Virus record (IMG/VR): IMGVR_UViG_3300009502_001749 | Span: 23,837-87,836 of that record | Origin: a virus | Reading direction: 5' to 3' (one strand) | DNA: 64,000 nucleotides | Shown: piece by piece, positions 8,600 to 47,581 of the stretch | How positions within the stretch are numbered: position 1 is the stretch's first letter | Layout: every line of letters begins with the position of its first letter | Position numbers and translations under genes: made by a program | Notes under the pieces: generated by a model | The model's database searches: none | The model's input: only the letters and a program-made list of their open reading frames with translations | What the model was told of the DNA's origin: nothing

Positions 8600-10322
8600 A
8601 TGGCAAGAAAAAAAGAAGATACAAATAAAAGTGCAAACAATAGTAGTTATGATTCTTCAAATTTTGAAAGTGCATCAACTAGTCAAGCTGAACTTTTGGG
8701 AACAGCATTTGAATCTATTATTACAACTAAATATGGATTTGCTAGAGCACCAGAACCTTATCTTACTCCATTTGGAATTCAACATTTGGATGGTTTAATT
8801 GGTGGAGGAATAACTTCTTCAGCACCAGTTATGTTAACATCAACTCCAGAAACAGGTAAAAGTACATTAGCTTTTCAGCTTTCAAAGATATTTCAAACAT
8901 TATATCCAAATTCGATGGTTGTTTATTTGGATATTGAAACAGCAGCAAATAAATCTAATAAAAATAATGCAATGTCTCGAGTTAATATATTTGAGATTGA
9001 TGAAAAGAGATTCAGGTATGAACCTTTGGTTATTGATATAAACCAGTTGTTTGAGTTGATCGAACAGTTGTGTCAAGTAAAACAAATGTTTGAACAAAAG
9101 TCACAGAAAGAGTTTAAAGTATTTATTATTTGGGATAGTATAGCGGCAACACCTTCTTCTAAAGTTGCTGACGCTGAAGATCCAAATAAAATAATTGGGG
9201 TTAGCTCTAGGCTTTGGCTCCAATAAAATCTTGTGAATTGCTGGAACACCCTTAAAACTTTTCTACTACAAAGTAATCTGAAAAGATAAACTTGAATGTT
9301 TAAAAAAGAAAAGATTGGGCAATCAGCAGCCGAGCTCCTAAAGAATCTGCTAAATTTTATGGAGAAGGTTCAACGACTAGTCGAAAGACGTAGAGTTTAA
9401 GTAAACTCGAAGCGCAAGACATTCAGAAATGAATGAAGATATAGTCTGATCTATATGGAAACATATAGCTGAATAAAATTCAGAAGAAGAATTAACGATT
9501 CTTCTTAAACACAAATGAAAAGCTCGCCAGTTAACATTTGCATTAGAAAAATATTTGCCAATGATGGCTTTTAACAGAATCACATTTCTTGCTATTGATC
9601 AAGTTCGTGCAAATCTTCAGATTGATCCTTACGCTCAAAAAGAAAAGTCAGTCGGGATCTTTAAAGATTATCGCGCCGCTACATCAATATCAGCTCTCAA
9701 TCATAGAGTTGCTCAATGGTTATTTTTATCCAGAAAAGCAGCTATAACACCAGATGATGGTTTGGGTATTAATGGTTGGCAGATGAATCTATATGTAGAG
9801 AAGAATAAAATTGCACCATCTCAAGAATCAATTACATGTGTTTTTGATAAAAGAAATGGTCTTCATAAATTTTGGAGTGAGTATATTTTCCTTAGTGAAA
9901 TGATGCCATCTGAAAAGAAATATTATAAAACTGAAGAAAAAATACCTTATCCATTATCAATTATAAAATCTGGACCTCAGGTTCATCTTGAGTTTATAGA
10001 TCCAACAACTGGAAATGTTACTTATTCATCAGATAATATGTATAAGAAAAATATGAACAAAGCATATGATTCAGATGCTCAATTTAAAGCTGCTTTTGAT
10101 TATGTTGTTAGTATGGCTGTTGAACTTAGAATTAAACAAGGTCTTTTTAGAGAGAATGAATCAAAAGTTAATTTAAGTTCTGAAGAGATTGAAGAATTTG
10201 AAACTGAAAGTCTTGTTGATGAAGATATAAATACACCTAAAATATCTGCCGCTGAACAAATTGTAGCAGAAATACCTTCAACTAATATTGAAACCGAAGC
10301 AACATATGAATCAATATTTTAA
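8600..10322 (+). CDS. recA: RecA/UvsX-like recombinase, spliced join(8600..9201,9518..10322), 468 aa
   Basis: TPFGIQHLDGLIGGG; Walker A STPETGKST; YLDIE; Walker B IIWDSIAA. Splicing restores IIGV-KARQLT, followed by IDQVR and KNKIAP. Confidence 0.88.
9202..9517 (+). ncRNA. Group I intron (no ORF, 316 nt) in recA
   Basis: P AATTGCTGGAA, Q AATCAGCAGCC, R GTTCAACGACTA, S AAGATATAGTCT. P1 TTGGGGT/GCTCCAA has the U-G splice pair; P10 GCTTT/AAAGC; terminal G; splicing restores the frame. Confidence 0.93.
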
Positions 10323-10345
10323 TATTGTTGTGTAGAGGAGTTATT

Positions 10346-11320
10346 ATGGATGTTAGATTTTTGAAAGAAATTAGTGAAGCATATATTATGGACACAGAAC
10401 TTGATGCTTTTCCAGAACAAATATTTAATGAATTATATGGAATCACCAAATATATTCAAGCGAATGATCTGGAATTATATAATGAACTTTATGAATCAAG
10501 CAGAATCACTCAACAAAGAATTTTAAAAACATATCTTGATTGTGTTTTTGAATTAGATGTTCCTGAAAAAGTTGATGAAGAATTGTTAACTGAAGATCCT
10601 GGAGTTGGAGCTGTTATTGGTATATTGGGTTCAATTGTAATTGGATTATATCGTAAAGGAATAACAAAAAGCTTAATGAAAGCTGCATCTGAACTTGGAA
10701 AATTTTCTGAGTATATTGGAAAATTTCTAACTAAGAAAGGTAAATATTTTCAGCTTAGATATTCTATTATTCAGGAAAATTATAAAAAATGTTATGTTAA
10801 ATGTGGAATTGAAAAACCTTCTGATATTAGTGCGCTTTCATATGGTTCTATTTCTTCATCGGCAAATTTCGCATCTAAAAAGTCAGCAGAGCAAGCAAAG
10901 TGTCTTAGAGAATGTTATCTTGAAAATTTAATAGAAACAATTTGTTTGCATATGGAAGGATATTTCGCTTGTTTAAAAAGAACTGGAAATTTTGCCGCTA
11001 TACAAAATTCTGATTCTGATGATCTTATGAAACTTATATCTTCAACTAATATTGGAGCTGCATGTGCAGATTATTATGATTTAGCTCAATCATCTCTTGG
11101 AAATTTTTACAAAGTTCTTGAATTAGTTTATAATGAGATGGAAGAAGGAGATAAAAAATTAGAATGGATCAACAAACTCAGAGGAAGATTATATCAAACA
11201 AGACAACAAGTACAAAAATATGATAATAATCAGTTACAAAAATATGATTCTAATAGCGGACAAAGACCAGATTTCAAAAACAATCAAAGACCTGATTTTA
11301 AAAAGTTTCAAAGGTCTTAA
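10346..11320 (+). CDS. Hypothetical protein, possibly virion-internal
   Basis: RBS AGGAG before ATG 10346; acidic N-terminus ending LLTE; hydrophobic segment; Cys pairs; short C-terminal QRPDFK repeat. Confidence 0.6.
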   Translation: MDVRFLKEISEAYIMDTELDAFPEQIFNELYGITKYIQANDLELYNELYESSRITQQRILKTYLDCVFELDVPEKVDEELLTEDPGVGAVIGILGSIVIGLYRKGITKSLMKAASELGKFSEYIGKFLTKKGKYFQLRYSIIQENYKKCYVKCGIEKPSDISALSYGSISSSANFASKKSAEQAKCLRECYLENLIETICLHMEGYFACLKRTGNFAAIQNSDSDDLMKLISSTNIGAACADYYDLAQSSLGNFYKVLELVYNEMEEGDKKLEWINKLRGRLYQTRQQVQKYDNNQLQKYDSNSGQRPDFKNNQRPDFKKFQRS

Positions 11321-11383
11321 AAGAAATTTATTCCCATTAGGAGGGGTGTTTAAAATATCCTAGATTCAATCAGAGGAGAAAAT

Positions 11384-11647
11384 ATGATTAGAGCTACAAT
11401 GTCTAAACGTAGTAAAGCTGGAAAAATGAATGCACTTGGTGGTGCTTTTGCAATGAGAATTGCGAGAGAAAAAGGCGATCCTCTTTATGTTAAAATGAAG
11501 AAACTTAAATTTTTATACAAAGCTGCGAAACTAACACTTCTTAAAAGATATGGTTCAAAGGGTAAAATGGCTGCTCGTTTGGCTGCTATGGGCAAAGTTC
11601 AGAGTTTTGCTCCTCATGTTTCTGGTCAACCTGTTCACAAAAAATAA
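11384..11647 (+). CDS. Small very basic protein, likely nucleic-acid binding
   Basis: RBS AGGAG; K/R-rich; AREKGDPLY motif. Confidence 0.6.
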   Translation: MIRATMSKRSKAGKMNALGGAFAMRIAREKGDPLYVKMKKLKFLYKAAKLTLLKRYGSKGKMAARLAAMGKVQSFAPHVSGQPVHKK

Positions 11648-11655
11648 AAATTTTA

Positions 11656-11692
11656 AATATTTGGGAAGGTGTCAAAAGCCTTCCCAAATATT
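11656..11692 (+). terminator. Hairpin terminator candidate
   Basis: Inverted repeat AATATTTGGGAAGG...CCTTCCCAAATATT after a stop codon. Confidence 0.6.
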
Positions 11693-11708
11693 ATATTTGC
11701 AATTTATA

Positions 11709-11720
11709 TATAGAAATTAT
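11709..11720 (+). promoter_or_regulatory. Candidate phage promoter element TATAGAAATTAT
   Basis: Same 12-mer, after a terminator and upstream of 11755. Confidence 0.45.
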
Positions 11721-11754
11721 ATCTTATATAAACTATATTAAATGGAGGCGTTGT

Positions 11755-12723
11755 TTGAGTGACTTAATTAATTTAATGGAAATGATCGAAACACCACAGG
11801 ATATTATTGAAGATATTATTGAAAGAGAGAAAAGTTCTGAAATTGTAGACTGTCCTTCATATGAAATTGTAACACCAAATATTCCACAATCTTATTCTTT
11901 ATTCGATATTGATAAATTTACAAAAGAATTGTATGATAAATCTGCCGCTAAAAATCAAGCTTATCGTGAAATAGTTCAGAATATTAATGCATATGATTTA
12001 GCAAAAAATTGTATAAGAGATATTGTTTATAAATTATTAAATACACCAGTTGAATCTTTTGCCGATAAATGGTTACCTATTTTATTAAGATCAACTTTAG
12101 GAAATGCTATACATAATTTCATTCAAGATAATTCTAATCAATTTACTGAAAGAGAAGTTTCTATAAAAGTTCCATCTAAAAGAATGTCTGTTAGATTAGA
12201 TAATCTTATCGGTCCAAATATTTTAGTAGAAATTAAAAGTTTACCTTATTTAGAATATGAAAAAATAATTAGAACTTGCAAACCAAGATTGGCAGATTTT
12301 TATCAAGGAGTAACTTATAAATATTTATTAGAGAATCATTTAGAAGAAGCAAAAAATTCTGGAGGAAAAGGAAAAACAAGAACTGATCCTCCGGCTTTAG
12401 ATAAATATGATATTCAACAAATTCAGTTCATTTATGTTGCACATGATGTAACAGCAAATGATGTTGAATCTTTAGCTGAAATTTTAGAACGAATCAAACA
12501 ATTAAAAAGACTTCTTAAGTCTAAGTCTAATACATTTTTCTTCATAACAACATTATCAATTGATGTAACAAATAATGTTGCAGATCCTTATATTAATCAT
12601 ATTAAAAATAAATTAGAAAGGATTAATTATTATTTAGATAATAATAAGATACCACCTGATGATGATAAATATATGGAAAAAGAATGTTTTTTCTGTCTAT
12701 ACAAAAAGTTATGTGGAAAATAA
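11755..12723 (+). CDS. Cas4-like PD-(D/E)xK exonuclease (solo)
   Basis: N-terminal Cys; GNAIH; RLD...EIKS; QxxxY; C-terminal CFFCLYKKLC Fe-S ligand pattern. Confidence 0.75.
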   Translation: MSDLINLMEMIETPQDIIEDIIEREKSSEIVDCPSYEIVTPNIPQSYSLFDIDKFTKELYDKSAAKNQAYREIVQNINAYDLAKNCIRDIVYKLLNTPVESFADKWLPILLRSTLGNAIHNFIQDNSNQFTEREVSIKVPSKRMSVRLDNLIGPNILVEIKSLPYLEYEKIIRTCKPRLADFYQGVTYKYLLENHLEEAKNSGGKGKTRTDPPALDKYDIQQIQFIYVAHDVTANDVESLAEILERIKQLKRLLKSKSNTFFFITTLSIDVTNNVADPYINHIKNKLERINYYLDNNKIPPDDDKYMEKECFFCLYKKLCGK

Positions 12724-12762
12724 TAATTTAGAGAAGAGTTAAATCTCTTCTCTAAATTATTA
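12721..12762 (+). terminator. Hairpin terminator candidate
   Basis: TAATAATTTAGAGAAGAG...CTCTTCTCTAAATTATTA perfect inverted repeat. Confidence 0.6.
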
Positions 12763-12774
12763 TTTGGAGATAAA

Positions 12775-12975
12775 ATGGAAACGAAGGATGAACTATTAAA
12801 TAAATATAAACATGATCCTTATTTGTTTATGAAAGATTTTATTATGAAACCAGGTCAAATATTTGATAAAAATCATGAAAAATTATTTATAAATTTACGC
12901 GAATTTTTAAAGAAAAGAATTAAAGCTAATGTGCCGATAGAAGATATCATTCATAAGGAGAGATATAATGATTAG
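12775..12975 (+). CDS. Hypothetical protein
   Basis: RBS GGAG; 66 aa. Confidence 0.5.
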   Translation: METKDELLNKYKHDPYLFMKDFIMKPGQIFDKNHEKLFINLREFLKKRIKANVPIEDIIHKERYND

Positions 12976-13405
12976 TGTTAAACATTTATTTGAATCGTTA
13001 AATCAATCAAAGAAAATTGGAATTGTAGGATATTCTGCAATGAAGTTTGATGAAGATTTAGCTAAAAAATTAATTAATGAAGGACTAGATAATGTTGATG
13101 CTAAAGAAGGAGATGAACTAGTTTCTGGATTAACAGATTTAGGAATACCAGGATTGGCTTACAGAATTGGTAAAGAACGAAATATGAAACTTATAGGTAT
13201 AGCTTGTGAAAAAGCACATGATGAAGATAGTGTTTGTTATCCTGTTGATAGAGAAATAATAGTTGGAAAAAATTGGGGAGATGAATCAAAAACTTTTTTA
13301 GATTATATAGATGTTTTAATTAAAGTTGGTGGTGGAAAACAATCTAAAGAAGAATATGAAAAGTTTGATGGTCCTAAGATTAATTTTGAATTAGAATCTA
13401 AGTGA
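12968..13405 (+). CDS. Leader-tagged SLOG-superfamily protein (DprA/LOG-like fold)
   Basis: MISVKHLFE leader; IGIVG, LVSGLTDLGI, IGIA and VGGGKQS motifs. Confidence 0.65.
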   Translation: MISVKHLFESLNQSKKIGIVGYSAMKFDEDLAKKLINEGLDNVDAKEGDELVSGLTDLGIPGLAYRIGKERNMKLIGIACEKAHDEDSVCYPVDREIIVGKNWGDESKTFLDYIDVLIKVGGGKQSKEEYEKFDGPKINFELESK

Positions 13406-13415
13406 GGAAATTATT

Positions 13416-13916: not shown

Positions 13917-13919
13917 ATA

Positions 13920-14596: not shown

Positions 14597-14602
14597 GGAG
14601 AT

Positions 14603-23863: not shown

Positions 23864-23888
23864 AAATTTGGAGGCGAAAAGAAAATTT

Positions 23889-26747
23889 ATGATACGGGCA
23901 CCATTTGTTTTAACTAAATATGATGAAGAGTCACTGAATCTTCTTCAAGAAAGTAATGGGATAAGTATTGATGAAATTAAACAAAACGAATGGTTTAAAT
24001 GTCGAGAAAATCCTTTTTATTTTATTTTGAACTATGTTTATCTACCAGAAGTTGGTGGAAAATTAAAATACACAAAAGAGTACTTACACCCAAAATTTAG
24101 AAGAATAATCAAATCAATATATAAAAATCATATGGCAATGTTGATGGCAAGTCGGCAGCTTGGGAAGAGCTCTATCGCTGCATGTCTTTTAGCATGGGCT
24201 TTAATCTTTTTTCCAAACAACAGAGTTGTCATTTTAAACTATCGAAAAATTGCCGCTCAAGAAAACTTAAAGAAAATAAAGTTTATAATACAAAATTTAC
24301 CAACATGGATGAAAATTCCTTATAGATCGAAAAGTGAAATTAAGGAATATGCTGAACTTCAAAACGGTTCAAGAATAGATACATTTTATCCTTCTTCAAC
24401 AAGTTCACCATCAACATTAGCTAGATCGCTTACAGTTCCGATTAACTTATAAAGTCGCTTTCATCAGTAATGATGATCGAATAATCCGGTGAATTCAGGG
24501 AAACTCCTAGTAATAGGACAATCCTGAGCCAAGCTTTAAATCTTGCCGCTAACAAGATTTACTGAAGGTGCAACGACTATCCCGAAAGGGAGTACATTCA
24601 AGCGAGTGGAAGCGCCGGACAACCTTAAAAATGAAAAATAAAAAAGGAAATAAATATGGAAGAAAATGAATATAATAAAATGAATTATTCTCAAGATATT
24701 TTAAAAAGATTTTGGAGTAAGATAGAAATTCCAGTTGATTGGGAAACAAATGATCAATGTTGGAAATGGAAAGCTAGTACATGGAAAGGATATGGACAAT
24801 TTTTATTATATGAAAATAAAAAAGTAAGAGCTCATAGATTTATATATGAATATTATTATGGTCCAATTTTAGATGATTTAATTATAAGACATAAATGTGA
24901 TAATCCAAGTTGTTGTAATCCTAATCATTTAATAACTGGTACTCAAATAGATAATGTAAATGATATGATTGAAAGAAAAAGACAAAATAATGTTAAAGGT
25001 TCTGAAAATGGTAATTCAGTTTTAACAGAAGAACAAGTTATTGAAATTTTAGAAAATATTAAAAATGGGTTATATTCAACTCAATTACAAATATCTGATG
25101 ATTATTTTATTAGTAAATCTGTTATTAATAAAATTTTAAACGGATATTTGTGGAAATCTATTACAGATAAATATAATCTTGATGAATTAAGAAAGATATT
25201 TACACATCCAAATTCACAATTAACAAAAGAAGAAGTTTTAGAAATTAGAAAATTATTTTTGGATGGAAAAAATAATATTGAAATTGGTAAAGAATTTAAT
25301 GTTTCACCTATCACAATTTCAAGAATAAGAACTGGAAAATTATATAAAAATTTTTAAGGTTGATGAGATAGTCTAATCTACATAGTAATATGTAGCAGTC
25401 TAACAAGACGGGTAGAGAGTAGCGATCTCTATTGAATACAAATGTTTATATGTTGATGAAGTAGCATTTATTAGTCATATGGAAGAAATTTATGGGAGCG
25501 CACAACAAACACTTTCAAGTGCAAGAGACCAAGCTATAAAGAATGATTATCCTTACTTTATTTTAATGACTTCAACTCCAAATGGTGTTGAAGGTGATGG
25601 AAAATTCTTTTATGATTTTTGGACTAATGCAGTTGAATCAGATGATATTTTTGAAGAAGATCCAGAAAATGGAATGGAAGATTGGAAACCAGATATATCA
25701 GGTCTTCTTAATCAAGCAGATAGAAATAGTTTTATAAGAGTTAAATATCATTGGTCTGAAAATCCAGATAAAACTATGGCTTGGTATGAACAACAAAAGA
25801 AAGAACTTAACTTTGATCTTAGAAAAATAAACCAAGAATTAGATATTCTTTTTGTTGGTGGAACAAATTGTATTTTTACTGATGAAGTTTTACAAAAATT
25901 AACTTATATACCCAGAACTAATTATATTGAACTTTCAAATCAAGTTCAATTTGATATGTATGGAGAAATTGATGAACAAGATTATCTTTTAGTTGGAGTT
26001 GATACAGCAAGTTCAATTAAAGGAGCTTTTAATGCTATAGAATTGTTTTCTTATAGAGATTTTATCCAGTTAGGTGAAGCTAATATTCGTTTGGGTTCAT
26101 TAACTAAATATGGTGAAACAGTTGATTCATTATTTAGAAATTTATATAAAACAACTAAGAGAATACTTCTTTGTATAGAAAATAACTCAATTGGTAAAGC
26201 TGTTATTGAACATTTAATTTATCATGTTAAAGATTTTAATTATATGCCTTTTATATATAAAGAAAAGAAATTGGATATGACAGATAAAGATGAATTTGGA
26301 ATATCAACAACAGGTCAATCAAAAGAATTAATGGTTTCACTTTTTTATGATCATATTAATCAAAATCCAGGATGTTTAAAGTCACAGAATTTGATTGCTC
26401 AGTTAGGTACAATACAAAGATCAAATCGTGGTACTGTTAAAGGTTCTGGTTATAGTGATATGTTTATGTCTGGTAGTTTTTGTGCATATGTTAGGAATAA
26501 AACTTATCTAGATATTTTGCCGCTATTAGGACAATCAAATAAACAAGTACAAGATACATTTTTTAACTCAGTAAAAACAGCTGCTGAAATGATGAATGTT
26601 AAATTAATTATTAAAAATTCAATTCAACAAGAAACAGGATATTTATCTATTGAAGAAGATAGATATAGAGATGAAGAAGCAAGACATGAACATGATACAA
26701 TAATGGATGAAGATTGGAGAGTGTTTATACCTATTTTAACACCATAG
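23889..26747 (+). CDS. terL: Terminase large subunit (gp17-like), spliced join(23889..24442,25445..26747), 618 aa
   Basis: KCRENPFYF; Walker A SRQLGKS; splicing restores Walker B VPI-LYVDEVAFI; STPNG; nuclease motifs GVDTA and IENN. Confidence 0.9.
24443..25444 (+). mobile_element. Group I intron with HNH gene, in terL
   Basis: P AATTCAGGGA, Q AATCCTGAGCC, R GTGCAACGACTA, S GAGATAGTCT. P1 CGAT/GTCG; P10 TATAAA/TTTATA; terminal G; in-frame splice. Confidence 0.93.
24656..25357 (+). CDS. Intron-encoded HNH homing endonuclease with C-terminal HTH repeats
   Basis: CWKW...GYG...RAHR...HKCDNPSCCNPNHL...N. ORF sits inside the stem CAACCTTAAAAA/TTTTTAAGGTTG. Confidence 0.9.
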   Translation: MEENEYNKMNYSQDILKRFWSKIEIPVDWETNDQCWKWKASTWKGYGQFLLYENKKVRAHRFIYEYYYGPILDDLIIRHKCDNPSCCNPNHLITGTQIDNVNDMIERKRQNNVKGSENGNSVLTEEQVIEILENIKNGLYSTQLQISDDYFISKSVINKILNGYLWKSITDKYNLDELRKIFTHPNSQLTKEEVLEIRKLFLDGKNNIEIGKEFNVSPITISRIRTGKLYKNF

Positions 26748-31447: not shown

Positions 31448-31488
31448 AATTATCGGCAAGATCTTTAAATTAGATCTTGCCGATAATT
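31448..31488. repeat. Dispersed palindrome copy 3
   Basis: AATTATCGGCAAGATCT...AGATCTTGCCGATAATT. Confidence 0.9.
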
Positions 31489-31509
31489 ATTAGTAGGAGG
31501 CGAAAAAAG

Positions 31510-33759
31510 ATGTCAATTGAAAAAATTGTAAATAAAATTTTACCAACTGCAGTTGCAGCAGCAGCTTTAACTAAAACTGTTACTAATCTATCTGATATGA
31601 AATTTATTAATAATGAATTTTTACCCGGAATATCTGCGGTAACTGGTTTAAAATTAGGTCCTATTCCAAATTTAAGTGATTTAGCTAAAAATGCTATGGG
31701 TTCTGTATCAGATATGTTTGGTTCAGCTAAAGATGCAGTAGGAAATATGTTTGGATCATCCAAATCTGATATAATAAAAGAAGATGCAATACATACTTTA
31801 GATGAAAGTGTTGGTATGGCTGCTTCTCCAGAAAGTATATGTTGCAATACAATTCCAGTAGATGAAGCTGTAAAAACAACAGGTGATAGTTTTGGTGGTA
31901 ATTTTGCTGCTGCGGCAACAAAATCAACATTTTTAGATTCAAATCTTTTACCAGAATTACCTGATAATTTAAAGACAATAGAACCTCAATCTTTTGGTGA
32001 TCTTGGTAGTGATTATGATTCTGCTCCAGAAGGTTATAATCCTTCTTATGAAGGTGAATGGACAGAACCATCATTTGGTGAATTAGGTAGTGATTATGAT
32101 TCTCCTTCTTGGGATGAAAATGCTTATGAAGCTCCTCCAGAAGGTTATAATCCTTCTTATGAAGGTGAATGGTATGAAGATGATTTTAGTATGTTAGGTA
32201 GTGATTATGAAGCTCCTCCTCCAGATTTTAGCGAACTTGGAAGTGATTATGAAACACCTCCTTGGGATGCAGATGCTTATGAAGCTAGTCCTAATTGTAT
32301 AGGAAATAGTATAGATTCTGGTGAAGAATCAATAACAGACTTTGATTCTCCAAGTGGTGGCGGTTCAATGCCAACTGGTAGTAGTCTATATGTTATTGGT
32401 AAACCAGTAGGATTTAATGAATCTATAGATCCAGGTGGAAGACTTAGTAATTATATTAAATCAAAAATGAGTGTTATTGATCTTATTCCATGTGATTATA
32501 AATTAGATTTTACAAAAATGAAAGAACAAAGTATGGAAGGAGGTAATCCTGTTGGTGATGGACTTTACACAATAAAATATGATGAAAAAGTTAAAATATA
32601 TCAAAGGCTCCAGAGACATTATGGATTAGATTCTGGAGATTCTGCAAAATCTGGAGTAAGATTATATACAACGGACGATACAACTTCAGTTGATAATTTT
32701 AGCATTCAATATAAACCAAATATATTTCAAGGTCCAATTGATAAACTTGGTGATGCTACAAGATCATTAGCTGATTTTATGAATTCTGTGGATAGTACTT
32801 GGCAAGCAACTGCTAATAAAAAAGTTTCAGAAGGTATTGATTGGTTAAAAACGAAAATGGGAAATAATAATGCTACTAATGCAGCAGGAGCTTTTTTAGA
32901 AACTGCAATAACTTCTATTGTGAAAGGTAATAGAGTTTCATTTCCTAAAATTTGGCAGAATACATCTTATAATAATACACTATCAACTGTTATTAAATTA
33001 GTATCTCCATATGGTCATCCTAAAGCTGTTTATGAGTTTATAATTAAACCATTAACATATTTAATTTTATTAGCTTCTCCACAAACAATAGATGGTTTTA
33101 CATATGGTGGTTCGATACCATTAACAATAAAAGCATATGGTATGAATCATACAACTTTAGGAACAATTAGTAATATAACAGCTCGACGCGGTGGAAATGA
33201 CACAAGTTTTAATGTTTATCGGCAACCTTTATCTATTGATGTTAGTATAACTTTTGAAACATTATTTGACGGTTTTGCCGCTTACTTACCAAATGGAAGC
33301 GGACAAGGAATAGATGAAATGTTTTCAGCTAAAGATGGTACATTAACAGGTCAATCTGGTCCTGGAAATGAATTATATCAAAAGACACCAAGAACACCTT
33401 TAATGACTGTTGGAAAAGTGCTTGAATCATTAAAACCAATAAAAATTGTTGAAGGTAATTTTGATACATATGGTTCTATGAATAGACCTTCAAGAATAAA
33501 TGCTCCTGGTGCTGGTGGTTTAGGAGATCTTAATCGTTCTCTTGGAAATATTTCTTCTGGTGTATCAACAGCAACAAATACAGTTGGAGATTTTTTAGGA
33601 ATGTCTAATCTTTCAGAATTTACAACTGCAAAAAAATCAATCACAGGTGTTATAAATTCAGTAACAGGTTGGGTTGGAGAGAGAACAAAAGATGTATCTG
33701 TAGGAGATGCAGCAAAAGAAAAAATATTTGGAAATATGGGAATTAACTTAAAAATGTGA
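31510..33759 (+). CDS. Baseplate hub / tube-cap-like protein with an acidic repeat region (start revised to 31510)
   Basis: GGAGG RBS; C-terminal ISNITARRG...PLSIDVSITFE resembles a gp48/tube fold; follows the tape measure gene. Confidence 0.5.
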   Translation: MSIEKIVNKILPTAVAAAALTKTVTNLSDMKFINNEFLPGISAVTGLKLGPIPNLSDLAKNAMGSVSDMFGSAKDAVGNMFGSSKSDIIKEDAIHTLDESVGMAASPESICCNTIPVDEAVKTTGDSFGGNFAAAATKSTFLDSNLLPELPDNLKTIEPQSFGDLGSDYDSAPEGYNPSYEGEWTEPSFGELGSDYDSPSWDENAYEAPPEGYNPSYEGEWYEDDFSMLGSDYEAPPPDFSELGSDYETPPWDADAYEASPNCIGNSIDSGEESITDFDSPSGGGSMPTGSSLYVIGKPVGFNESIDPGGRLSNYIKSKMSVIDLIPCDYKLDFTKMKEQSMEGGNPVGDGLYTIKYDEKVKIYQRLQRHYGLDSGDSAKSGVRLYTTDDTTSVDNFSIQYKPNIFQGPIDKLGDATRSLADFMNSVDSTWQATANKKVSEGIDWLKTKMGNNNATNAAGAFLETAITSIVKGNRVSFPKIWQNTSYNNTLSTVIKLVSPYGHPKAVYEFIIKPLTYLILLASPQTIDGFTYGGSIPLTIKAYGMNHTTLGTISNITARRGGNDTSFNVYRQPLSIDVSITFETLFDGFAAYLPNGSGQGIDEMFSAKDGTLTGQSGPGNELYQKTPRTPLMTVGKVLESLKPIKIVEGNFDTYGSMNRPSRINAPGAGGLGDLNRSLGNISSGVSTATNTVGDFLGMSNLSEFTTAKKSITGVINSVTGWVGERTKDVSVGDAAKEKIFGNMGINLKM
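31993..32286 (+). repeat. Intragenic imperfect tandem repeats (F-x-x-LGSDY x4; PEGYNPSYEGEW x2)
   Basis: Exact DNA duplication of CTCCAGAAGGTTATAATCCTTCTTATGAAGGTGAATGG. Confidence 0.85.
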
Positions 33760-35915: not shown

Positions 35916-38777
35916 ATGGATTTTGCATCAAACAGTACAAAAAAAGTTGTATCAAATTCTTTATTAAAAGCTTTCATATCAAGATATGTTGCAGAAGATT
36001 TTTTTACAAATATTGCAAGAATAATTCTTTATCCATCTGATTTTGGTAATTTTATTTCAGATAGAACAAATTCTGTAATTGATTATATGCAAGAATTTTT
36101 AAAGAGTTTATCAATTTTTTCTGGTAAATTACAACTGCAAAATACTAAAGTTGTTAGAAGTCAAATTGCTATTTTAAGTTCTTTATTAACAATTAGAGAA
36201 ACAAGTCCAATTTTATTAACTTATGATAATGTGAATCAACATTTAATGCCAGGACAAGATTTAATTGTTACTAAACTTATTCAAAAATGTGTTGATGAAA
36301 GAATTACTGATCCTGATGAATTTAGAAAAATTACAGATGAAATTATCAGTACAATTTCTTCTTATTATGAAATGATGTCAGCTTCAGATAGTATTACTAT
36401 GGTTGGGAATCTTTATGATTTGATTAATGAAGGTAATCTTGTGCCGATGGAAACATTAAAAAGTTATAAAGATGTTATTAATGTTGCATATAACGATTTA
36501 TCTAAATTACAATCTTTAAGTAAAGCTGAAACAGCTGCAGATTATTTTGTTATTTCAGATGATAAGTCTTGTGATGCATTATCAAAAACATTAGTTAATT
36601 ATGTGTCAAAAGGTTTTTCAGTATTTAAAACTGGTTTTGATTTATTTGATAAATATATTAATGGAATTGAAAGTTCCAGCGTACATTTGATAGGGGCTCC
36701 GAGCAACCACGCTAAGAGTTTGTTTACGATTAATCTCTCATATAGAATGATAAAAAATAATCTTGCCGATTTCGATAAACAAGATTGTATATTATTTGTA
36801 ACATTAGAAGATTTAGTTAATAACTAACTTTGTCTCTTTTACTGGTGACAGTAATTGAAAAAATCCGGTGAATTCAGGGAACATCCTAGTAATAGGACAA
36901 TCCTGAGCCAAGCTTTAAATCTTGCCGCTAACAAGATTTATTGAAGGTGCAACGACTATCCCGAAAGGGAGTACACTCAAGCGAGTGGAAGCGCCGGACA
37001 TCTTGAGAAATTTAATATTATGGAGTTATTAAAATGTTTAATGAAATGAATTACCCAGAAAAATATATTATAAGATTTTGGGACAAAGTAAATGTTCCAA
37101 AAGATTGGGCTGAAAAAGATCAATGTTGGAAATGGAATGGACTTTTATTTATAAAAACTAATTATGGAAGTTTTTCTTTTAATGGTAAAAATCTTAAAGC
37201 TCACAGATTCTCATATGAAATTCATTATGGTCCAATTCCTGAAGGATTAGATGTTATGCACAAATGTGATAATCGAAAATGTGTAAATCCAAATCATTTA
37301 AAAGTTGGTTCCAGAAAAGAAAATATGGAAGATTGTGTTGAAAAAGGAAGATCAAAATTTGGTTCTAAAAATAATATGTCTAAGTTAACAGAAAATAATA
37401 TTATAGATATTATTAATAAAAGTTTAAATGGAACATATACAAATAGAAATCAAGTTATTAATGATTATAAAATATCATTATCAGAACTTTCAAATATTCT
37501 TTGTGGAAAAAGATGGACACATATAACTTCTAATTTTACACAACAAGAAATTGAAAAAGTAAAATATTTATTAGGATGTAGGTTATCAATAGAAGATATT
37601 GCTGATATAAAAATGAGATTAGATAAAGGTGAATCACAAAGTTCAATAGCTAGAAGTTATAATATATCTCAACCGGTAATATCAAATATGATAAAATTTA
37701 TAAAACTCAAGATGATGAGATAGTCTAATCTTATAGGTAACTATAAGCAGTCTAATAAGACGGGTAGGGAGTAGCGATCTCTATTGAATAAAAATGGATA
37801 TTTACAAATTAATTCGTAGGTTCGCGTCAATATATGGAAATTATAAATTTGAATCTTTAAAAAGATTATTTTCAAAATCATATGAAATGACAAGAGCAAC
37901 ACAAATAATGGACATGTCAACTGAAGCAAGTTCAAGATTGTATAATAATTTAGACGGGATGTTTAAAAATGTTTTAAAAACAAGTATTGCTAAAGTAACA
38001 CAAGGTAAAGTTAATATAGCAATTAAACATTGTTCAGAGAATTCGTTTTCTCCTGGTGATTTAGGAAGATTTATAGATCGTTTGAATATTGAAGGTTATA
38101 AGATTAAGATGGTCTTTGTAGATTACTTAGATGTTATGTCTGCGACAATTAACAGATTTGGTGGAGCAGGGAAAGAATATGATATACTCGGTCAGATCAC
38201 ACAAGAACTTCGTAACTTAGCTCGTATACATAAAGTACCAATAATAAGTCCTACACAGAATAGAAGAGAGTCAGAGAATGTAAGCACAAAACTAAGTAAT
38301 GAACAAACTGGTGATTCATATAAAAAAATCAGATATTCGGATTTTATATATTCATGTAGATTAAGACCAGATTTAGATTTTCTATCTGAAGGAGTTAGAC
38401 ATCATGTGATTCCAACAAAAGTAAGTCCAGATGGAACAATTGCAGATTTTATTTCTCCAGAACTTATAAAACTTAAAGAAAGCTTATTTAGAGTATTAGT
38501 ACCTTTTGAAGTTAAAATTACAAAGTCAAAAGATTCAGAAAAAGATTCAACAAAATTTTTCTTATTTTGTAAAGAAAATTTGAGAATGTATAATAATGTA
38601 GATGAATATATTAAAGATGCTCCTGTTCTTGTTGCTAATAGTGAAAAGTTAGAGAAAGATATTGCTATATTAACTGAATTAGCTATTACAAGTGTTTCAA
38701 GTGGAATTAATGAATTTTTTGATAATGATCAGAGTGATATTGAATTTGGTGATATTCCAAATGTTGTTTTTGGATAA
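35916..38777 (+). CDS. DnaB/gp41-like replicative helicase, spliced join(35916..36812,37797..38777), 625 aa
   Basis: KTGFDLFD; atypical Walker A GAPSNHAKS; FVTLE; VFVDYLDVM; ELRNLA; SPTQNRR; GDSYKK; ITKSKD. Confidence 0.85.
36813..37796 (+). mobile_element. Group I intron with HNH gene, in the helicase gene
   Basis: P/Q/R/S nearly identical to the terL intron; P1 AGAT/GTCT; terminal G; splice gives TLED-DIYKL in frame. Confidence 0.92.
37034..37723 (+). CDS. Intron-encoded HNH homing endonuclease
   Basis: CWKW...KAHRFSYE...HKCDNRKCVNPNHL; paralog of the 24656 ORF. Confidence 0.9.
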   Translation: MFNEMNYPEKYIIRFWDKVNVPKDWAEKDQCWKWNGLLFIKTNYGSFSFNGKNLKAHRFSYEIHYGPIPEGLDVMHKCDNRKCVNPNHLKVGSRKENMEDCVEKGRSKFGSKNNMSKLTENNIIDIINKSLNGTYTNRNQVINDYKISLSELSNILCGKRWTHITSNFTQQEIEKVKYLLGCRLSIEDIADIKMRLDKGESQSSIARSYNISQPVISNMIKFIKLKMMR

Positions 38778-39917: not shown

Positions 39918-42900
39918 ATGTCATTATTTGGCCAGTTTTTTAAAGATGATTCACTTGAAAATTTTGATGCTAGAATAGATTCACTTGTTAGTCAATTTCC
40001 TTCTACTGAAAAAGGAGAACCAGTTGATTTGTTATCTGGAGATTTTATTTCATCGTTTATGGAACATTCATCTAAAGATGAACTTGAAAAAGTACTTGCA
40101 GGAATATCTGTTTCTAGAGATAGACTTGAAAGATATGCTGTTTATGATGAAGCATATAAATATGTACCAATTCTGAAACGTATGATGAAAGTTTATGTTG
40201 CTAATATTTTACAAAAGAATCCAGTAACAGGTAAAAGCGTTCTCATTCAAGAGTCTGGAGATTTAACAAAAGAAAAGCGTCAGAATAAAGAAATTTTAGA
40301 ATCGGCGAAAGATTTTGCCGATAAATGTATTAAATCATTCGATTTATTAGCTAGATTAAAAAACAAAATTTTACCAAATGAACTAACCTATGGTGACTGT
40401 TATCTTGAAGTTGTTGATGTGAATCAAGAAATTAAAAAATCTGATCCGGAAGGTGCTGCAGCAGTTCAAATGACTACGTTGTTTGAAGGTGATTTAATAA
40501 ATATGACTGCTGAAGTTGATCAAATGAAAAATCGAGCAAATGGTCATTTGCCGATAGGACAAATTGATCAATTATTATATAAGACCGCTGAATATTTGGC
40601 TGATATTGAAGTTGCTTCTATTACAGAGTATGATCCTAATGAAAAGGATGATGAAGATAAAAAGAAACAAAGTAATGGATCAACAAATTATGCTGATAAT
40701 TCATCAACAAAAACTAGTGATAAAGAAAACAAAAAAGAAGTTCAAGATTTTAATGATATTGTTATTAAAATTCATAAACCTCACAATATTATAGTTTTAC
40801 AAACAAACTATGGATCAACTATAGGATATCTTGAAGTTGCAAAAGATGAATTTCCTCAAGTATTTAATTTAACTCAATCTCTTTCAACTTTAGTAGGACG
40901 TATAACATCACTAGTAGGAAAAGATCAATTAAGTCAAGATAATGTAACTGATAGGATTGTTCGATTTATTGTAAAACAAGCATTAGATAAAGCTGATAAG
41001 TCTAAAGCTTTTGATATGAGTCAGCAGAATGTACAGAATATTAATGACATTCTGAAAAATTTAGACCCACAAGTTTACACTTACATTAAAAGATTAATTA
41101 TCGAACAAGGATTAAATCAGACACAGTCACAATATCTTAACAAGTTAAAGATCAGATTTATTTCTTCAAGCCGTATGATTTCATTTACAGTTCCATCGAA
41201 TGAGTATGATCCGTATGGAATTTCGTTTATTGATAATTTAGTATTTCAGTGTAAGTTGTATATTCTTTCACAGTTGTCTAATGTGATTATGAAGTTGAGT
41301 AGAGCTGCGCCAGTAAGAAAATGGACGATAGATACGGGCAGCACTCAAATGCACGCTAACTTGATTCAGAAGTTGAAACGTGAGCTTTACAATACAAGAG
41401 TAACATTAGATGATTTAGGTAGTTTTAAGAGTATTCCCAAGCTGTTAAGTGACTTCAAGGATAAATTTTTGTCCCCTATATCAGTAATGATATTTGAAAA
41501 ATTCGGTGAATTCGGTGGAACTCCTAGTAATAGGACAATACCGAGCCAAGCTTTAAATCTTGCTGCTAACAAGATTTATTGAAGGTGTAACGACTATCCC
41601 GAAAGGGAGTACGTCCAAGCGGACGGAAGTGCCGAATATCCTGTAATAGTAAAATAAAAAGTATGGAGGACAGCGCCGGCCAGCGTTGATAGATACCGAT
41701 TTATCTATCTTACTCCTTTTAAACAATTAACCTAATCGGAGGATTACAAATGAATAAAGAAAAAATTGAAAAAGCAAAACAAATTATAAAAAATTTTAAA
41801 AATGAGGAAGAACATTCAAATTTTATTTTTAAAATGTGTATTGAATGGAAATTATCTATTGAAGAAATTTCAGAATGTTATAATAATTATACTCCAGATC
41901 TCATTAAACAATTTTTGATTGAAGTGTATAAAGTTGAGTTTAAAAAGTGTAAAAAATGTTGTGAAACTAGATCAATAACATCTTTTACAAAACAATTTAA
42001 AGATAGTAATATAACTCGATCTTATTGTAAAGTTTGTAATAATCTTGAAAAAGCAAAATATAGAAAAATTCCAGAAGTGAGACAAAAAATATTGAATATG
42101 CTAAAGAATATAATCAAATGTATAATATTAATAATAGAGAACAAATTAAACAAACACATCATGAATATTATGAAACAAATAAAGATATTATATCTCAAAA
42201 ACAGAAAGAATATTATGAATTACATTCAGATGATGTTAAACAAAGATCAAAAGATTATTATTATGATAATCAAGAAAAATTTATACAACTTAGTATAGAT
42301 TATAAAAAACAACATCCAGAATGTGCTGAATACAGTAAAGAATATAATAAAATACATCATGATGAATTATTAGAATATAAAAATGAATATAATAGAAATA
42401 AATATAAAACAAATTCAAAACATAGATTAAGAGTTTGTTTTGGTTCAAATTTATATAATTCAATTAAGAATTTAAAAAGTGGTAGAAAATGGGAAGAAAT
42501 TGTTGGATATACTCTTGAACAACTTATGGAACATCTTGAGTCTAAATTTGATGATAAAATGACTTGGGATAATTATGGAAGTTATTGGCATGTTGATCAT
42601 ATTGTTGGAGTTGCAAATTTTAATTACACATCTTATGAAGATGAAGCTTTTAAAAAATGTTGGTCGTTAGAAAATTTACAACCTTTATATGGAGTTGATA
42701 ATCTTAAAAAAGGTGACACAATTAGTGAAAAATGGAATAATACTGAGTTAGCAGCTCAATTACTTATGTAACATAAAATTACAGGATAATGATATAGTCT
42801 AGTCTGTATAGTAATATACAGTTGTCTTTAAAAAGACAGGTTAGAAGTTGCGATTCTAGCTGAATATAAACGATGTTCGTGCTCGCGAAGGGCGGAAATA

Positions 42901-43448
42901 AACCTATAGATGTTGAAGTGACTTCACATGGCGACCCCACAATCAGAGTCGCAGATCTTGAAGATTCAAGAAGGGAAATAATGAGCTTGTCCGGCATACC
43001 CCCAGCATATTTGGGCTACGCGGACGTGATCGAATTGCGCGAGCAACTAGTTCACACAAACATCTCTTTCGCTACAGAAATAATTGATATGCAAGAGATA
43101 ATTACAGCTGGTCTTACAAAATTTGTAGATATTGTAGCAGAAATTTTAAATGTTAAATATAAACCATCGGAATACGTACAGATTAAATTAATTCCACCGA
43201 TAGTTTTAATTCTTCAGTTGATTGAGATGACTCTGTCATCAATTGGTAATATTAATGGAATATTTCAAACGTTACAAACTCCAGTTGATCCTTATTTCTT
43301 CTTAAAACAATATGTACCATATATTGATTGGGATGCGTTTAGAACAGCAGCAGATCAATATGTTACTGATCAAAAAACAAAAGCTGAAATAGATGCTAAT
43401 AAGAATCCTGGAAATTCGAATCCTGAACCTGGAGCTGAAGGAGGGTAG
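39918..43448 (+). CDS. Portal protein (gp20-like), spliced join(39918..41462,42873..43448), 706 aa
   Basis: LSRAAPVRKWTIDTG; splice gives LSDFKD-MFVLAKGGNKPIDVEVT; LSGIPPAYL; position upstream of protease and capsid genes. Confidence 0.85.
41463..42872 (+). mobile_element. Group I intron with a frameshifted HNH gene, in portal
   Basis: P AATTCGGTGGA, Q AATACCGAGCC, R GTGTAACGACTA, S GATATAGTCT; P1 GGAT/GTCC; terminal G 42872; in-frame splice. Confidence 0.92.
41750..42771 (+). pseudogene. Intron-encoded Zn-finger/HNH endonuclease split by a -1 frameshift at the A6 run 42084-42089
   Basis: Frame 1 has CKKC and CKVC. Frame 2 continues NIEYAKEYNQ... to WHVDHI...NLQPL...DNLKK. Confidence 0.75.
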
Positions 43449-43450
43449 TA

Positions 43451-43879
43451 ATGTTTTTAGTTGAAGTTTTATTTGAACAACAAACTCAAACACCATCCCA
43501 AGTTCCTCCAGTGCAAATTGTACAACATGTTAATCAGCCTGAAACTAAACAACCTGAACCTACTTCACAACAGGATCAAGATGTTCCTCAGGAACAACCT
43601 GAACAACAACTTTCAGGAGATGAACTGGATGCTGTTCAGGCACAAGAAATGGGAATTGCTCCAGATCTTATGCCGATAAAAAAATATTATTTAATCAACA
43701 GATTAAAAGAGTTAAAAACCCAATTGGGTGAGTACAGTATACAAAATGATGAACTTAATATTGTACTAAAATTTGCCGATAATTTATCTTATAGTTCATT
43801 ATTAAGTATTGGAATGATACTTATTGATTTTATTGAACAACAATTAGCGAGGTTAACAGATGGCAAAAATAAAAGCTAA
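43451..43879 (+). CDS. Prohead core/scaffold-like protein
   Basis: Between portal and protease; MFLVEVLFE N-terminus; Q/P/E-rich linker. Confidence 0.55.
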   Translation: MFLVEVLFEQQTQTPSQVPPVQIVQHVNQPETKQPEPTSQQDQDVPQEQPEQQLSGDELDAVQAQEMGIAPDLMPIKKYYLINRLKELKTQLGEYSIQNDELNIVLKFADNLSYSSLLSIGMILIDFIEQQLARLTDGKNKS

Positions 43880-44621
43880 GAAATATAATTTTATATTTGA
43901 AACCACCTCGATTAATTCACGTGATGATATTAAAGTTTTAGAAGAAACAAAATTGCCTAATGGTAATGGAAAAATTGCAGCCTCAGTTAGACTTCAGGAA
44001 GCAGAAATGAAGAATAGTAATAGTCGATATTACTCAACTGCGATTTGTGAATCCATAGTGAGTCAGTTATCTCCGAAAGCAACGAGTCGATCATTATTAA
44101 TGGAGATTGATCACCCACTTTTTGTAACTTCAGCTGACGATGTTAAAAGACGTGCGTCAATCGTAGAAATTAATAATTGTGGTGGTTTGTTAAGAAAGAT
44201 AGATTTTGCCAATAATAAAGTAGGTGGAATCTTTGAAACCCTTAGTGGATTTAAAGGTCCGGATTTGTACAACATAATAATGAAAGATCAGGTAGACATA
44301 GGATTTTCATTGAGAGCTCTTGGTGCAGTCGAACAGCTTCAGGATGGAACAATATTAGTCAAAGATCCTATAAAACCAATCACGTATGATGTAGTTTCGA
44401 ATCCAAGTCATGCAACGGCAAAAGTTCTTGAATTCTTACCAGAAAACGTTACAGAGTATATGTCTGAACACAGTGTGATTTATGAAGCTGCTGATATAGA
44501 AATGTTAGATTTAGATCATATAACAATTTCTGACAGTACAATTTCACTAACTGAATTTTTTGATGATATTTATAGACAGAAATTTTCAGATGTTATTAGT
44601 AGAATAACTTTTAGAGTTTAA
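43860..44621 (+). CDS. Prohead protease (T4 gp21-like)
   Basis: NSNSRYY; MEIDHP; GFSLRALG; ITYDVVSNPS (catalytic H/S/D). Confidence 0.9.
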   Translation: MAKIKAKKYNFIFETTSINSRDDIKVLEETKLPNGNGKIAASVRLQEAEMKNSNSRYYSTAICESIVSQLSPKATSRSLLMEIDHPLFVTSADDVKRRASIVEINNCGGLLRKIDFANNKVGGIFETLSGFKGPDLYNIIMKDQVDIGFSLRALGAVEQLQDGTILVKDPIKPITYDVVSNPSHATAKVLEFLPENVTEYMSEHSVIYEAADIEMLDLDHITISDSTISLTEFFDDIYRQKFSDVISRITFRV

Positions 44622-44655
44622 TTACTCAATATTATATTTAAAAGGAGATTTAATT

Positions 44656-47581
44656 ATGTACGATCAAGCGATATTCGAAAATTATGAAATGTTCTTAAAT
44701 GAGCATAGTGATGAATTTTCTACTCCAAGTGGAGCTTTAAAACTCATTACAGATAACGGTATGTTTAGGGGTTACATGGAAGGACTTACAAATGGTCTTG
44801 ATTCAAATCAGAGAGCAGTTGCTATGGCAGTTGCAAATCGTCAGAGAGAATATCTTTTGACAGAATCTGCAAACGTTCCTGGTAGTACACTTGCATTTGG
44901 TTGGACTGTACTTAGCTTTCCTATTCTTGTTGATATTTATGCTGAGCCAGTAATAAGTGAATTATGTAATGTTTATCCGGTTTCATCCCCAGTAGCATCT
45001 ATTCCCAGAATCAAAATCATGGCTTATATTAGAGGCTATGATGGTAACGTAACACAGGTCAGAATGCCTACGCTTAATCAGGCTGTTAGACCCGGTGCAT
45101 TGAATCTTACAGTAACACCTGCAGTAAGCAACAGCATATTTACTATAGCTTCAGCGGCAGTTGCTCCTGCAACAGTAACGTCTGATATGTACAGAATTAA
45201 TAGAAGGTATACACTTCTTACAGCAGTTCAGGTAGCAGAAACTACAGCTCTTGGTCCTGTTGTAAATCATAATGTTGTAGTAACAATAAAGCCTGATAAT
45301 AGAAATCAGTTTGTTGGTACTTTTACATTTAACGATAATACTCCTGCTCCTGTAGGTCCAGTTGCTATCGTTGGTACATTGAATGGTCATATTAATTATG
45401 ATTCTGGAATTTTTCAGTATCAGGTAATTTATGCTGTTGGCGCAACTACTTCTACATTTGCAACAACTTCAGCAACAATGACTATACGTTTTATGTCTCT
45501 GACAACTCAGAATGGTCGTATAAAGGTCAAAATTCAGACTGAAATGACTGACGTAAGTATAGATCAGAATGAAGATTTTCTCATCGAATTACCACCTGAA
45601 GATATACAAGATTTTCGCGCGATCAACAATTAAAGGTCGCTTTCACTAGTAATAGTGATCGAATAATTTTCCTAATTGCTGGAACACCCTTAGAGCTTTT
45701 CTACTACAAAGTAATCTGAAAAGATAAACTTGAATGTTTAAAAAAGAAAAGATTGGGCAATCAGCAGCCGAGCTTCTGTAAAATGAAGAAGGTTCAACGA
45801 CTAGAGCGCAAGCTCGTAGACTCAAGCGAGTCGAAATGGAAGAAATCCTTGAATATTTAACATTTTCATATAGAAATAATAAATTAAGTCTAGCCAACTT
45901 TGAACTAATTTATTATGGAGGTGAGAATGGAAAAAGAATGTTGTAAATGTCATCAAATTAAAGATGAATCAGAATTTGAAAAAAGAAATGATGTTAATTA
46001 TTGTCATAAATGTACGAGTATTAATAATAGAAGAAGAAAAATCAAGAAAAATACTCCAGAAGAAAACTTTCAATTCTTATATAAACTATATATGAGAGGT
46101 GAAACAGTAGAAGATTGTTGTTTGTACTTTGAAACATCTAATAATATTATCATTGAAGCTTTAAATCTATTTGGAATTTTTCCAGATCAAACTGATAAAT
46201 TATTTTGCTCAAAATGTAATCAAATGAAATCATTTGATGAATTTGATCAAAGTAAGAATAGAAGAGGATTTAAACCTTGGTGTAAAACATGTAATAAAGA
46301 ATATAATGATACATATTATGAAGATAATTCAGATTATATTAAACAAAAAACTCTTAATTACTATTATGAAAATTATGATATTGAAGTTGAAAGACGTATT
46401 AAATATCATTATGATCATAGAGATGAAATTCTTGAAAATAAACGTATAATGAGACAAAATGAAGAGTTTAAACAAAATAAAGCTATTTATGATGCATCAT
46501 ATTATGAAATATATAAAGAAGAAATTAAAGAAAATATTTATCAATGGAAAATAAATAATCCAGCAAAAGTAAGAGAAATACAAGAATTTTATCGTATAGC
46601 AAAATTACAAGCAACACCTAAATGGATTGATAGAGAAGAAATTTTAAAATATTATATTGAAGCTAGAAGATTAACAGAAGAAACTGGAATATTATATTCT
46701 GTTGATCATATCATTCCATTACAAGGTGAAAATGTATGTGGTTTACATGTTCCATGGAATTTACAAGTTATTACACAATCAGAAAATTGTAGAAAAAATA
46801 ATAAAGTTTTAGTAGAAATGTGATTGGCTATCACATTTCTTTTTGTTTTTCAAGGATTATGATATAGTCTAATCTCATAAGAAATTATGAGCTGTCTGAA
46901 TAAGACGAATAAAATTTAGCGAATTTTATTGAATATAAATGCTTTAAGATCGACATTTTACGTACACTTTCCGAAGCAATAAAAAGACAGATCATGTTGA
47001 ACAAAGATCAGGATCTTGCTTTCTTCTTAGCAGCTTCAGAAGGCGATATGGCATCTAACGGTGCTGCAGAAGCATTGAATCTTGATAGTTACGATGTAAC
47101 CGGCGGTCGTTTCGAACCTAACAAAGTTATCGATGTATTTAAGGCTGTAATTCCTAAGATTTCTATTCTTACTGGAATTATAAGAAAGAATTTCAACATG
47201 TATCCTTCTTATTTAGTAGCTGGTTTAAAGACTGCTGCTTTGTTAAGATCAGTTCAGACATTTGCACTCCAGATGCCGGGTATTGGAAATGGCGACGGCG
47301 CAATGGGTTGGGCAGGAGATGTTGCACAGATGTTGAAGATGAAAGTTCTTGAATCTAATGCAATCGCAGAAGGTAAGATATATCTTTCAACAAAAGCTCC
47401 GAATAATGCTCTTGAAAAATCTACTATAGTTGATTTGATTTATCAACCTCTCTACATCGTAACTGAGGTAACTGATGGTCAGACCAGAAACTATGTAAGA
47501 TCAAGAACTCTTATTGAAATTCCTAGAACAGATGGTCTTGGAGTTATCAATATAACTGGTCTTGGTACTTATTTTACGTAA
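44656..47581 (+). CDS. Major capsid protein (gp23-like), spliced join(44656..45623,46942..47581), 535 aa
   Basis: Follows the protease; propeptide ending LLTE. Splice gives DIQDFRAI-FKIDILRTLSEAIKRQIMLNKD, similar to gp23 QDLRAVHG..EIN. C-terminal YQPLY. Confidence 0.85.
45869..45880 (+). promoter_or_regulatory. Candidate phage promoter inside the capsid intron
   Basis: TATAGAAATAAT about 35-45 nt before the HNH start. Confidence 0.45.
45915..46823 (+). CDS. Intron-encoded HNH endonuclease with Zn fingers (start may be 45927)
   Basis: Four CxxC pairs; VDHIIPLQGENVCGLHVPWNLQVI...N..KNNK. Confidence 0.88.
   Translation: MEVRMEKECCKCHQIKDESEFEKRNDVNYCHKCTSINNRRRKIKKNTPEENFQFLYKLYMRGETVEDCCLYFETSNNIIIEALNLFGIFPDQTDKLFCSKCNQMKSFDEFDQSKNRRGFKPWCKTCNKEYNDTYYEDNSDYIKQKTLNYYYENYDIEVERRIKYHYDHRDEILENKRIMRQNEEFKQNKAIYDASYYEIYKEEIKENIYQWKINNPAKVREIQEFYRIAKLQATPKWIDREEILKYYIEARRLTEETGILYSVDHIIPLQGENVCGLHVPWNLQVITQSENCRKNNKVLVEM

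Follow-up and report, generated by a model that had tools for sequence, protein, structure and literature searches.

Five group I introns of an uncultured lake phage form a mosaic of shared core modules that were probably exchanged within the genome

Recombination and domain shuffling between the phage T4 td, nrdB and sunY (nrdD) introns were reportedly described by Hall, Liu and Shub in 1989 and by Bryk and Belfort in 1990. Several group I introns may also occupy one phage genome. Landthaler and Shub (1999), as described in PMC3073962, gave many such introns for Staphylococcus phage Twort, three similar ones of them in one gene. Two jumbo-phage papers give about 18.5 group I introns per genome for the Jug phages (PMC12880540) and, for PhiPA3 gp210, an HNH intron in an RNA polymerase gene (PMC11620839). 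Group I introns have been proposed to reach new sites by reverse splicing, both for introns of ribosomal DNA (PMC1299323) and in a review (PMC3984707) that describes their route to new sites as still open. Here we analyzed a stretch of 64,000 nucleotides (nt) with 29% G+C, called the window below, which comprises bases 23837-87836 of the 87.8-kb IMG/VR contig IMGVR_UViG_3300009502_001749 and comes from an uncultured lake phage. Its recombinase, terminase, helicase, portal and capsid genes are each split by a predicted self-splicing group I intron. The window is syntenic with a 285.6-kb relative, IMGVR_UViG_3300021520_000002 (here referred to as G001), at ~77-87% nucleotide identity, and both are jumbo phages.

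These introns are a natural example of the intron part-swapping already known from phage T4 and not a new kind of element. As in T4, homologous IA-type introns lie in different genes of one genome, and recombination at short conserved core elements would yield chimeric, foldable introns. However, the T4 events were selected in the laboratory and were mostly crossovers with deletion, whereas those in the lake phage would be natural and non-crossover, since gene order is intact, and involve five introns, including those of structural genes, with blocks that are 2-4% diverged. Twort, to judge from the portion cited, resembles the lake phage in having several closely related group I introns per genome, but its introns lie in one gene, whereas here five genes are involved and module borders can be drawn. 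The cited portions of the Jug phage and PhiPA3 papers likewise concern essential jumbo-phage genes (terL, polymerases) split by group I introns with HNH genes, and an intron in the RNA polymerase beta'-type gene of G001 recalls that of PhiPA3. Those portions count introns or study competition and do not report that introns exchange modules.

Two pairs of otherwise diverged introns share near-identical blocks with abrupt borders (Table 1). As the earlier note on this DNA had counted, positions 9236-9336 of the recA intron match positions 45674-45774 of the capsid intron at 99 of 101 nucleotides (block A), and positions 24484-24621 of the terL intron match positions 36863-37000 of the helicase intron at 134 of 138 (block B); a repeat search finds the same families. 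When the recA and capsid introns were scanned by maximum chi-square, the outlier was exactly 9236-9336, with 99/101 identical columns inside it and 109/232 outside (0/300 column permutations). Beyond block A, the two introns are 42% identical in their 5' parts, 62% from P7.1 to P3' and 71% in their 3' tails. The same method placed a break between the terL and helicase introns at ~24483, with 216/241 identical columns downstream and 23/49 upstream (0/300 permutations). These two introns are 62% identical in the P1 loop, guide and P2, 96% in P3-P6, 100% in R and 93% from P7.1 to P3'; their P8 stems are different, and their 3' tails are 89% identical overall.

The other two likenesses reported in the earlier note fared differently. 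The portal intron is, as claimed, a diverged member of the terL/helicase type: its P4-P6 region is 90-92% identical to those two, with two compensatory pairs in P4 (A-U to G-C at 16-50 and G-C to U-A at 18-48). Its P5 equals that of the terL intron, and its P6 has one difference from the helicase copy and two from the terL copy, while the G001 RNA polymerase gene holds the intron that comes closest to it in P4, P7.2, 5' module and endonuclease family. The 5' module of the capsid intron (P1 loop, guide and P2) had been matched to that of the terL intron. Their kinship holds, with 72% identity and a best window of 32/37 (3/300 permutations), but the recent near-identity does not; given this level of identity and compensatory changes in P2, the relationship is real but old.

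We consider it probable that the five homologous introns, all of them in essential genes, evolve as dispersed repeats, trading pieces of their cores by intragenomic gene conversion; the mechanism, direction and timing of the exchange are what we infer from the mosaic. Non-crossover homologous recombination between copies within one genome would start in short stretches shared by the cores, namely, J3/4-P4, the R element (GAAGGUNNAACGACUA) and the S element. The borders do fall at J3/4-P4, R and S, which are conserved in every copy, and this is the pattern that homologous recombination would give. Such events would recently have replaced three regions: the P4-P5 domain in an exchange between recA and capsid, the P3-P6 core together with most of the 3' tail in one between terL and helicase, and, in the portal intron, the P6 hairpin. 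Parts without homology between copies, i.e., the P1 loop, guide, P2, P9 and the P8 stem with its endonuclease gene, would stay different, and the endonuclease genes would be separate, older passengers of the P8 loop, such that one site can hold different families.

The blocks might instead be alike without any exchange, through strong purifying selection on the ribozyme core while the periphery drifts. Parts of the core are indeed highly conserved: unrelated phage contigs match R-P7.1-P7.2 at 96-98% over 52-62 nt, a 24-nt R-P7.1 seed occurs in more than 114 IMG/VR contigs, and a 19-nt P4 seed is equally widespread. Outside R-P7.1-P7.2, however, the same columns are 72-92% identical in the portal intron, the G001 introns and external homologues, i.e., they differ at 8-28%, with compensatory pairs. 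Since these columns vary elsewhere, constraint alone does not explain identities of 96-98%. The identical stretches also take in loops and the long P5 extension, and the terL P4-P6 region is 72-82% identical to the G001 introns. External introns were gathered by seed matches and thus form a seed-biased sample; among the matches listed, the best identity outside this genome is 86-90% for block A and at most 77% for the whole of block B. We therefore regard selection without exchange as very unlikely.

In G001, no intron occupies the recA, terL, portal or capsid site (4/5); 3-4 further relatives likewise lack an intron at the portal and capsid sites, and the capsid splice junction is matched in G001 and four other relatives. 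The helicase intron of G001 lies at exactly the same insertion site as that of the lake phage. The earlier note had asked whether each intron is closest to same-site introns of other phages; at the helicase, the sole site where this could be tested, it is not. The P4-P6 region of the helicase intron is 96% identical to that of its terL paralogue and 74% to that of the same-site G001 intron, and its 5' part is 62% identical to the former and 39% to the latter, whereas the exons of the two phages are ~77-81% identical. Module types are also combined differently in other relatives: the portal intron of one (contig L259) joins a terL-type P4-P6 to a recA-type P7.1/P7.2, and the capsid intron of another (contig L260), at a different site, joins a recA-type P3-P6 (85%) to the common P7.1. 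With the recA and terL introns, all four combinations of P4-P6 and P7.1/P7.2 types therefore exist.

This reassortment between phages would also be expected if the near-identical modules had been imported separately and recently from an outside intron pool during co-infection. Many viral contigs, from lakes and elsewhere, carry introns of this family, and other module joints occur in the same sequencing runs, for example, from 45774 through 27 nt to 36943 (run X5, depth 4). Import nevertheless seems unlikely to us, though less so than constraint. No external copy exceeds 90% among the matches listed, IMG/VR has no exact match to the 31-nt P6 hairpin common to three introns of this genome, and the same rare block would need two independent imports.

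Assembly artefacts, either repeat collapse or chimeric paths, would be a further source of shared blocks, and we regard them as extremely improbable. The blocks are 101-140 nt long, which is near the read length, and Logan contigs (k=31) break within them. However, these contigs break only where the sequence is identical to the recA copy, as expected at this k. Logan contigs covering 41583-45725 (X1, X2) and 42588-45725 (X5) run from capsid exon 1 via the terL-like 5' part into block A, and others covering 45745-47600 (X1, X2) run from block A through the endonuclease gene into exon 2. The borders of the capsid block are thus bridged with zero mismatches in three runs from two studies. In addition, the copies keep private differences (2/101 and 4/138), exon order to either side of each intron agrees with that in G001, and the frame is restored by all of the splices. 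Repeat-collapse misassembly, which the earlier note named as a way in which its claim could fail, is rejected on the grounds of the bridging contigs and the private differences. At 36941 the Logan contigs show only C, without the helicase-specific T; we read this as bubble-popping between near-identical copies and not as evidence against the helicase copy. Further joints in lake contigs connect 41612 to 46861 and 46896 to 37783 (X1, depth 16). One joined form without an open reading frame (ORF) has about the phage's own depth and may represent a sixth intron, located in the 70% of the genome that was not sampled.

Module exchange among the introns of one genome, as put forward in the earlier note, is supported by the abrupt block borders and by a paralogue that is nearer than the orthologue, and further by the empty G001 sites, the four core combinations and the rejection of misassembly. 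Several points weigh against gene conversion within the genome. Because R-P7.1-P7.2 is conserved across unrelated phages, it carries no exchange signal, and block B, which the earlier note had used at its full 138 nt, loses its last ~58 nt as evidence. The terL and helicase introns have wholly different, compensated P9 stems within 3' tails that are otherwise ~94% identical, which needs patchy tracts or a separate replacement of the hairpin. The seed-biased external sample may leave room for a closer external donor, donor and recipient are indistinguishable, and both splicing and recombination are deduced here from sequence alone.

TABLE 1. Predicted introns, their putative endonuclease genes and guides, and the shared blocks (window coordinates)
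Feature	Position	Strand	Description	Exons	Guide position	Guide	5' exon end at splice site
Block A, recA copy	9236-9336	+	P4, P5 extension, Q; 99/101 to capsid copy				
Block A, capsid copy	45674-45774	+	99/101 to recA copy				
Block B, terL copy	24481-24621	+	P3 through P3'; 134/138 to helicase copy				
Block B, helicase copy	36860-37000	+	134/138 to terL copy				
recA intron	9202-9517	+	316 nt, no ORF	8600-9201, 9518-10322	9217-9223	GCUCCAA	UUGGGGU
terL intron	24443-25444	+	1002 nt	23868-24442, 25445-26747	24454-24457	GUCG	CGAU
terL intron ORF	24656-25357	+	HNH_3+HTH endonuclease in P8 loop				
Helicase intron	36813-37796	+	984 nt	35916-36812, 37797-38777	36832-36835	GUCU	AGAU
Helicase intron ORF	37034-37723	+	HNH_3, in P8				
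Portal intron	41463-42872	+	1410 nt	39918-41462, 42873-43448	41471-41474	GUCC	GGAU
Portal intron ORF	41750-42298 and 42064-42771	+	phrog_1035 endonuclease-like, split over two frames				
Capsid intron	45624-46941	+	1318 nt	44656-45623, 46942-47581	45636-45640	GUCGC	GCGAU
Capsid intron ORF	45915-46823	+	phrog_1035/phrog_26577 endonuclease in P8				
G001 helicase intron						GUCCUC	GAGGAU
L259 portal intron			9 nt upstream of source-phage site			GUCAC	GUGAU
G001 RNA polymerase intron						GCGG	CCGU

Intron boundaries were set by three criteria: U.G pairing in P1, a G at the intron end, and the reading frame. All five introns have the U.G pair at the 5' splice site and the terminal G, predicted splicing yields one open frame in 5/5 genes, and the spliced recA, terL, portal and capsid junctions align gaplessly to the uninterrupted G001 genes. 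An alternative 5' splice site in terL, after 24448, would also keep the frame, but only 24442 gives both the U.G pair and the gapless alignment. An Rfam RF00028 scan (gathering score, 50 bits) across 8000-48500 missed all of the introns, and short sub-windows recovered them, with scores of 93.2 bits for recA, 73.1 for helicase, 58.5 + 30.1 for portal and 58.2 + 26.2 for terL. The capsid intron gave split matches of 37.6 + 23.8 bits, each under the gathering score, so that its group I membership rests on its homology to the other four introns.

The predicted fold was examined by covariation in 11 terL-type cores, with the type A cores of recA and capsid lying outside this set. In these cores, 96.5% of the cells in helices P3, P4, P5, P6, P7.1 and P7.2 are paired, and compensatory changes occur at 19 of 40 core pairs (0/500 shuffles match; slid controls, 34-43%). 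All five introns have an insertion between the R element and the 3' strand of P3 that is predicted to form P7.1 and P7.2, as in subgroup IA. P7.2 has 5 bp with compensatory changes at four pairs; P7.1, with 4 bp, is invariant and hence uninformative for covariation. Some smaller features of the cores were also noticed. The P6 hairpins at 24546-24553 and 36925-36932 carry TCTTGCCG and that at 41563-41570 in the portal intron carries TCTTGCTG; the octamer TCTTGCCG is also the octamer of the intergenic palindromes ATCGGCAAGATC..GATCTTGCCGAT. Near the portal-intron P4, AATTCGGTG occurs twice, 9 nt apart. Introns without ORFs are present in relatives at L259:1921-2262 (portal, 9 nt upstream of the site in the lake phage) and L260:4086-4528 (capsid, after residue 88), and in a further contig, L262, the 9 kb surrounding the portal and capsid genes contain at least eight S elements.

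All four endonuclease ORFs are enclosed by the two strands of an 8- to 12-bp P8 stem, in agreement with their earlier placement in the P8 loop between R and S. The terL and helicase ORFs match Pfam HNH_3 with 43.4 and 52.1 bits, respectively (cut-off, 24.8), as well as phrog_59/1872; HTH_38 scores 27.6 bits in the former and is under the cut-off in the latter. From these matches both are putative I-HmuI-like homing endonucleases and HNH_3 paralogues, with 37.6% amino acid identity to each other. The coding sequence of the helicase ORF overlaps the ribozyme core, its stop codon TAG (37721-37723) lying inside the S element (P7 3'). The second family matches phrog_1035, a profile labelled 'endonuclease VII' (His-Me finger), with E-values of 1e-19 for the capsid ORF, 1e-15 and 1e-10 for the G001 helicase and RNA polymerase intron ORFs, and 6e-6 for the portal ORF, and Pfam detected no HNH domain in these four. 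The portal ORF is 39-41% identical to the G001 pair, with G replacing P of the DHI(I/V)P motif, while the capsid ORF shares only its N-terminal part with that pair (26-28%) and has a different C-terminal motif. The three HNH types of the earlier note are thus better described as two families, one of two HNH_3 paralogues and one of two phrog_1035 members with different C-terminal nuclease motifs. That endonucleases have been swapped is directly supported at the helicase site, where the same P8 loop holds an HNH_3 gene in the lake phage and a phrog_1035 gene in G001.

A frameshift at or near an A6 run (42084-42089) splits the portal ORF, and contigs from three runs agree on this sequence; the homing endonuclease gene is either decaying or read by slippage. 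Just upstream of the phrog_1035 ORF, a G+C-rich twin hairpin, GGAGGACAG ... CUUACUCC, is found at 41664-41716 in the portal intron and at L017:9267-9322 in the G001 helicase intron, with fold z-scores of -0.9 and -2.8, respectively, and may control translation of the ORF. The G001 intron at 195550-196650 (minus strand; L022:15550-16650) also has a phrog_1035 ORF, and the exon downstream of it encodes GADHDGDQ, a multisubunit RNA polymerase beta'-like motif.

As the earlier note had stated, every guide fits the 5' exon next to it, with which it forms 4-7 bp, and U.G is present at the splice site. Contrary to its proposal, however, the guides are barely retargeted: the four P2-bearing introns of this phage all have a GUCN guide following an exon that ends in NGAU, the guides differ by one nucleotide, and the terL guide equals that of the capsid intron. 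The sites of the GUCN introns with P2 (terL, helicase, portal, capsid and L259 portal) share no sequence beyond NGAU. GA precedes 7.5% of the T's in the genome, and the chance of four further independent GAU sites is ~3e-5. At the position where the guide requires a G, the intron-bearing alleles use the rare G-ending codons CCG (terL), GCG (capsid) and AAG (portal), which account for 4.6%, 3.9% and 14% of the codons in their respective families; the intron-less G001 codons at these sites are CCA, GCA and AAA. It is conceivable, if rather doubtful, that new sites are picked by the RNA guide and not by the endonuclease, with the intron reverse splicing into a GAU site and then becoming fixed as DNA. 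In ribosomal DNA, similarly, related introns lie at sites sharing only 3-5 nt complementary to the guide; the lake-phage sites, in contrast, are in protein-coding genes, and there is no evidence for an RNA intermediate in this phage. The same pattern would arise if insertions at the DNA level passed through a viability filter, so that the GAU sites and rare codons reflect either guide-limited site choice or such a filter.

The genome and G001 together form a compact natural record, in which exchanged blocks only 2-4% diverged are found beside four sites seemingly gained since the split of the two phages, unless lost in G001, one site with two endonuclease families and a simple, testable rule of a GUCN guide and an NGAU exon. 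For annotation, the lesson is that introns have to be removed in metagenomic jumbo phages of this kind; otherwise the genes for portal, capsid, terL, helicase and recombinase will be predicted in pieces. The contig is 31% complete by CheckV estimate, and DNA of the window is present in lake and freshwater metagenomes. A search of the phage GenBank collection returned no relatives of the source phage, only short matches to intron cores, with Twort/K-like staphylococcal phages weakly similar in core DNA. Pfam and PHROGs back the identities of the UvsX-like recombinase (both exons match phrog_97), terL and the DnaB-like helicase. Searches of the portal and capsid exons in Pfam and PHROGs gave no match, nor did a PDB profile search with the portal, and AlphaFold2 models of the capsid and portal orthologues, built from alignments of 3-4 sequences, were unusable (mean predicted local distance difference test score, 33.5). 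The names capsid (gp23-like) and portal (T4-type) accordingly rely only on ESM Atlas look-alikes and gene order. Elsewhere in the window, a 760-residue ORF (31477-33759) contains an in-frame tandem repeat at 31993-32291, with units of ~42-111 nt rich in GSDYE/APP.

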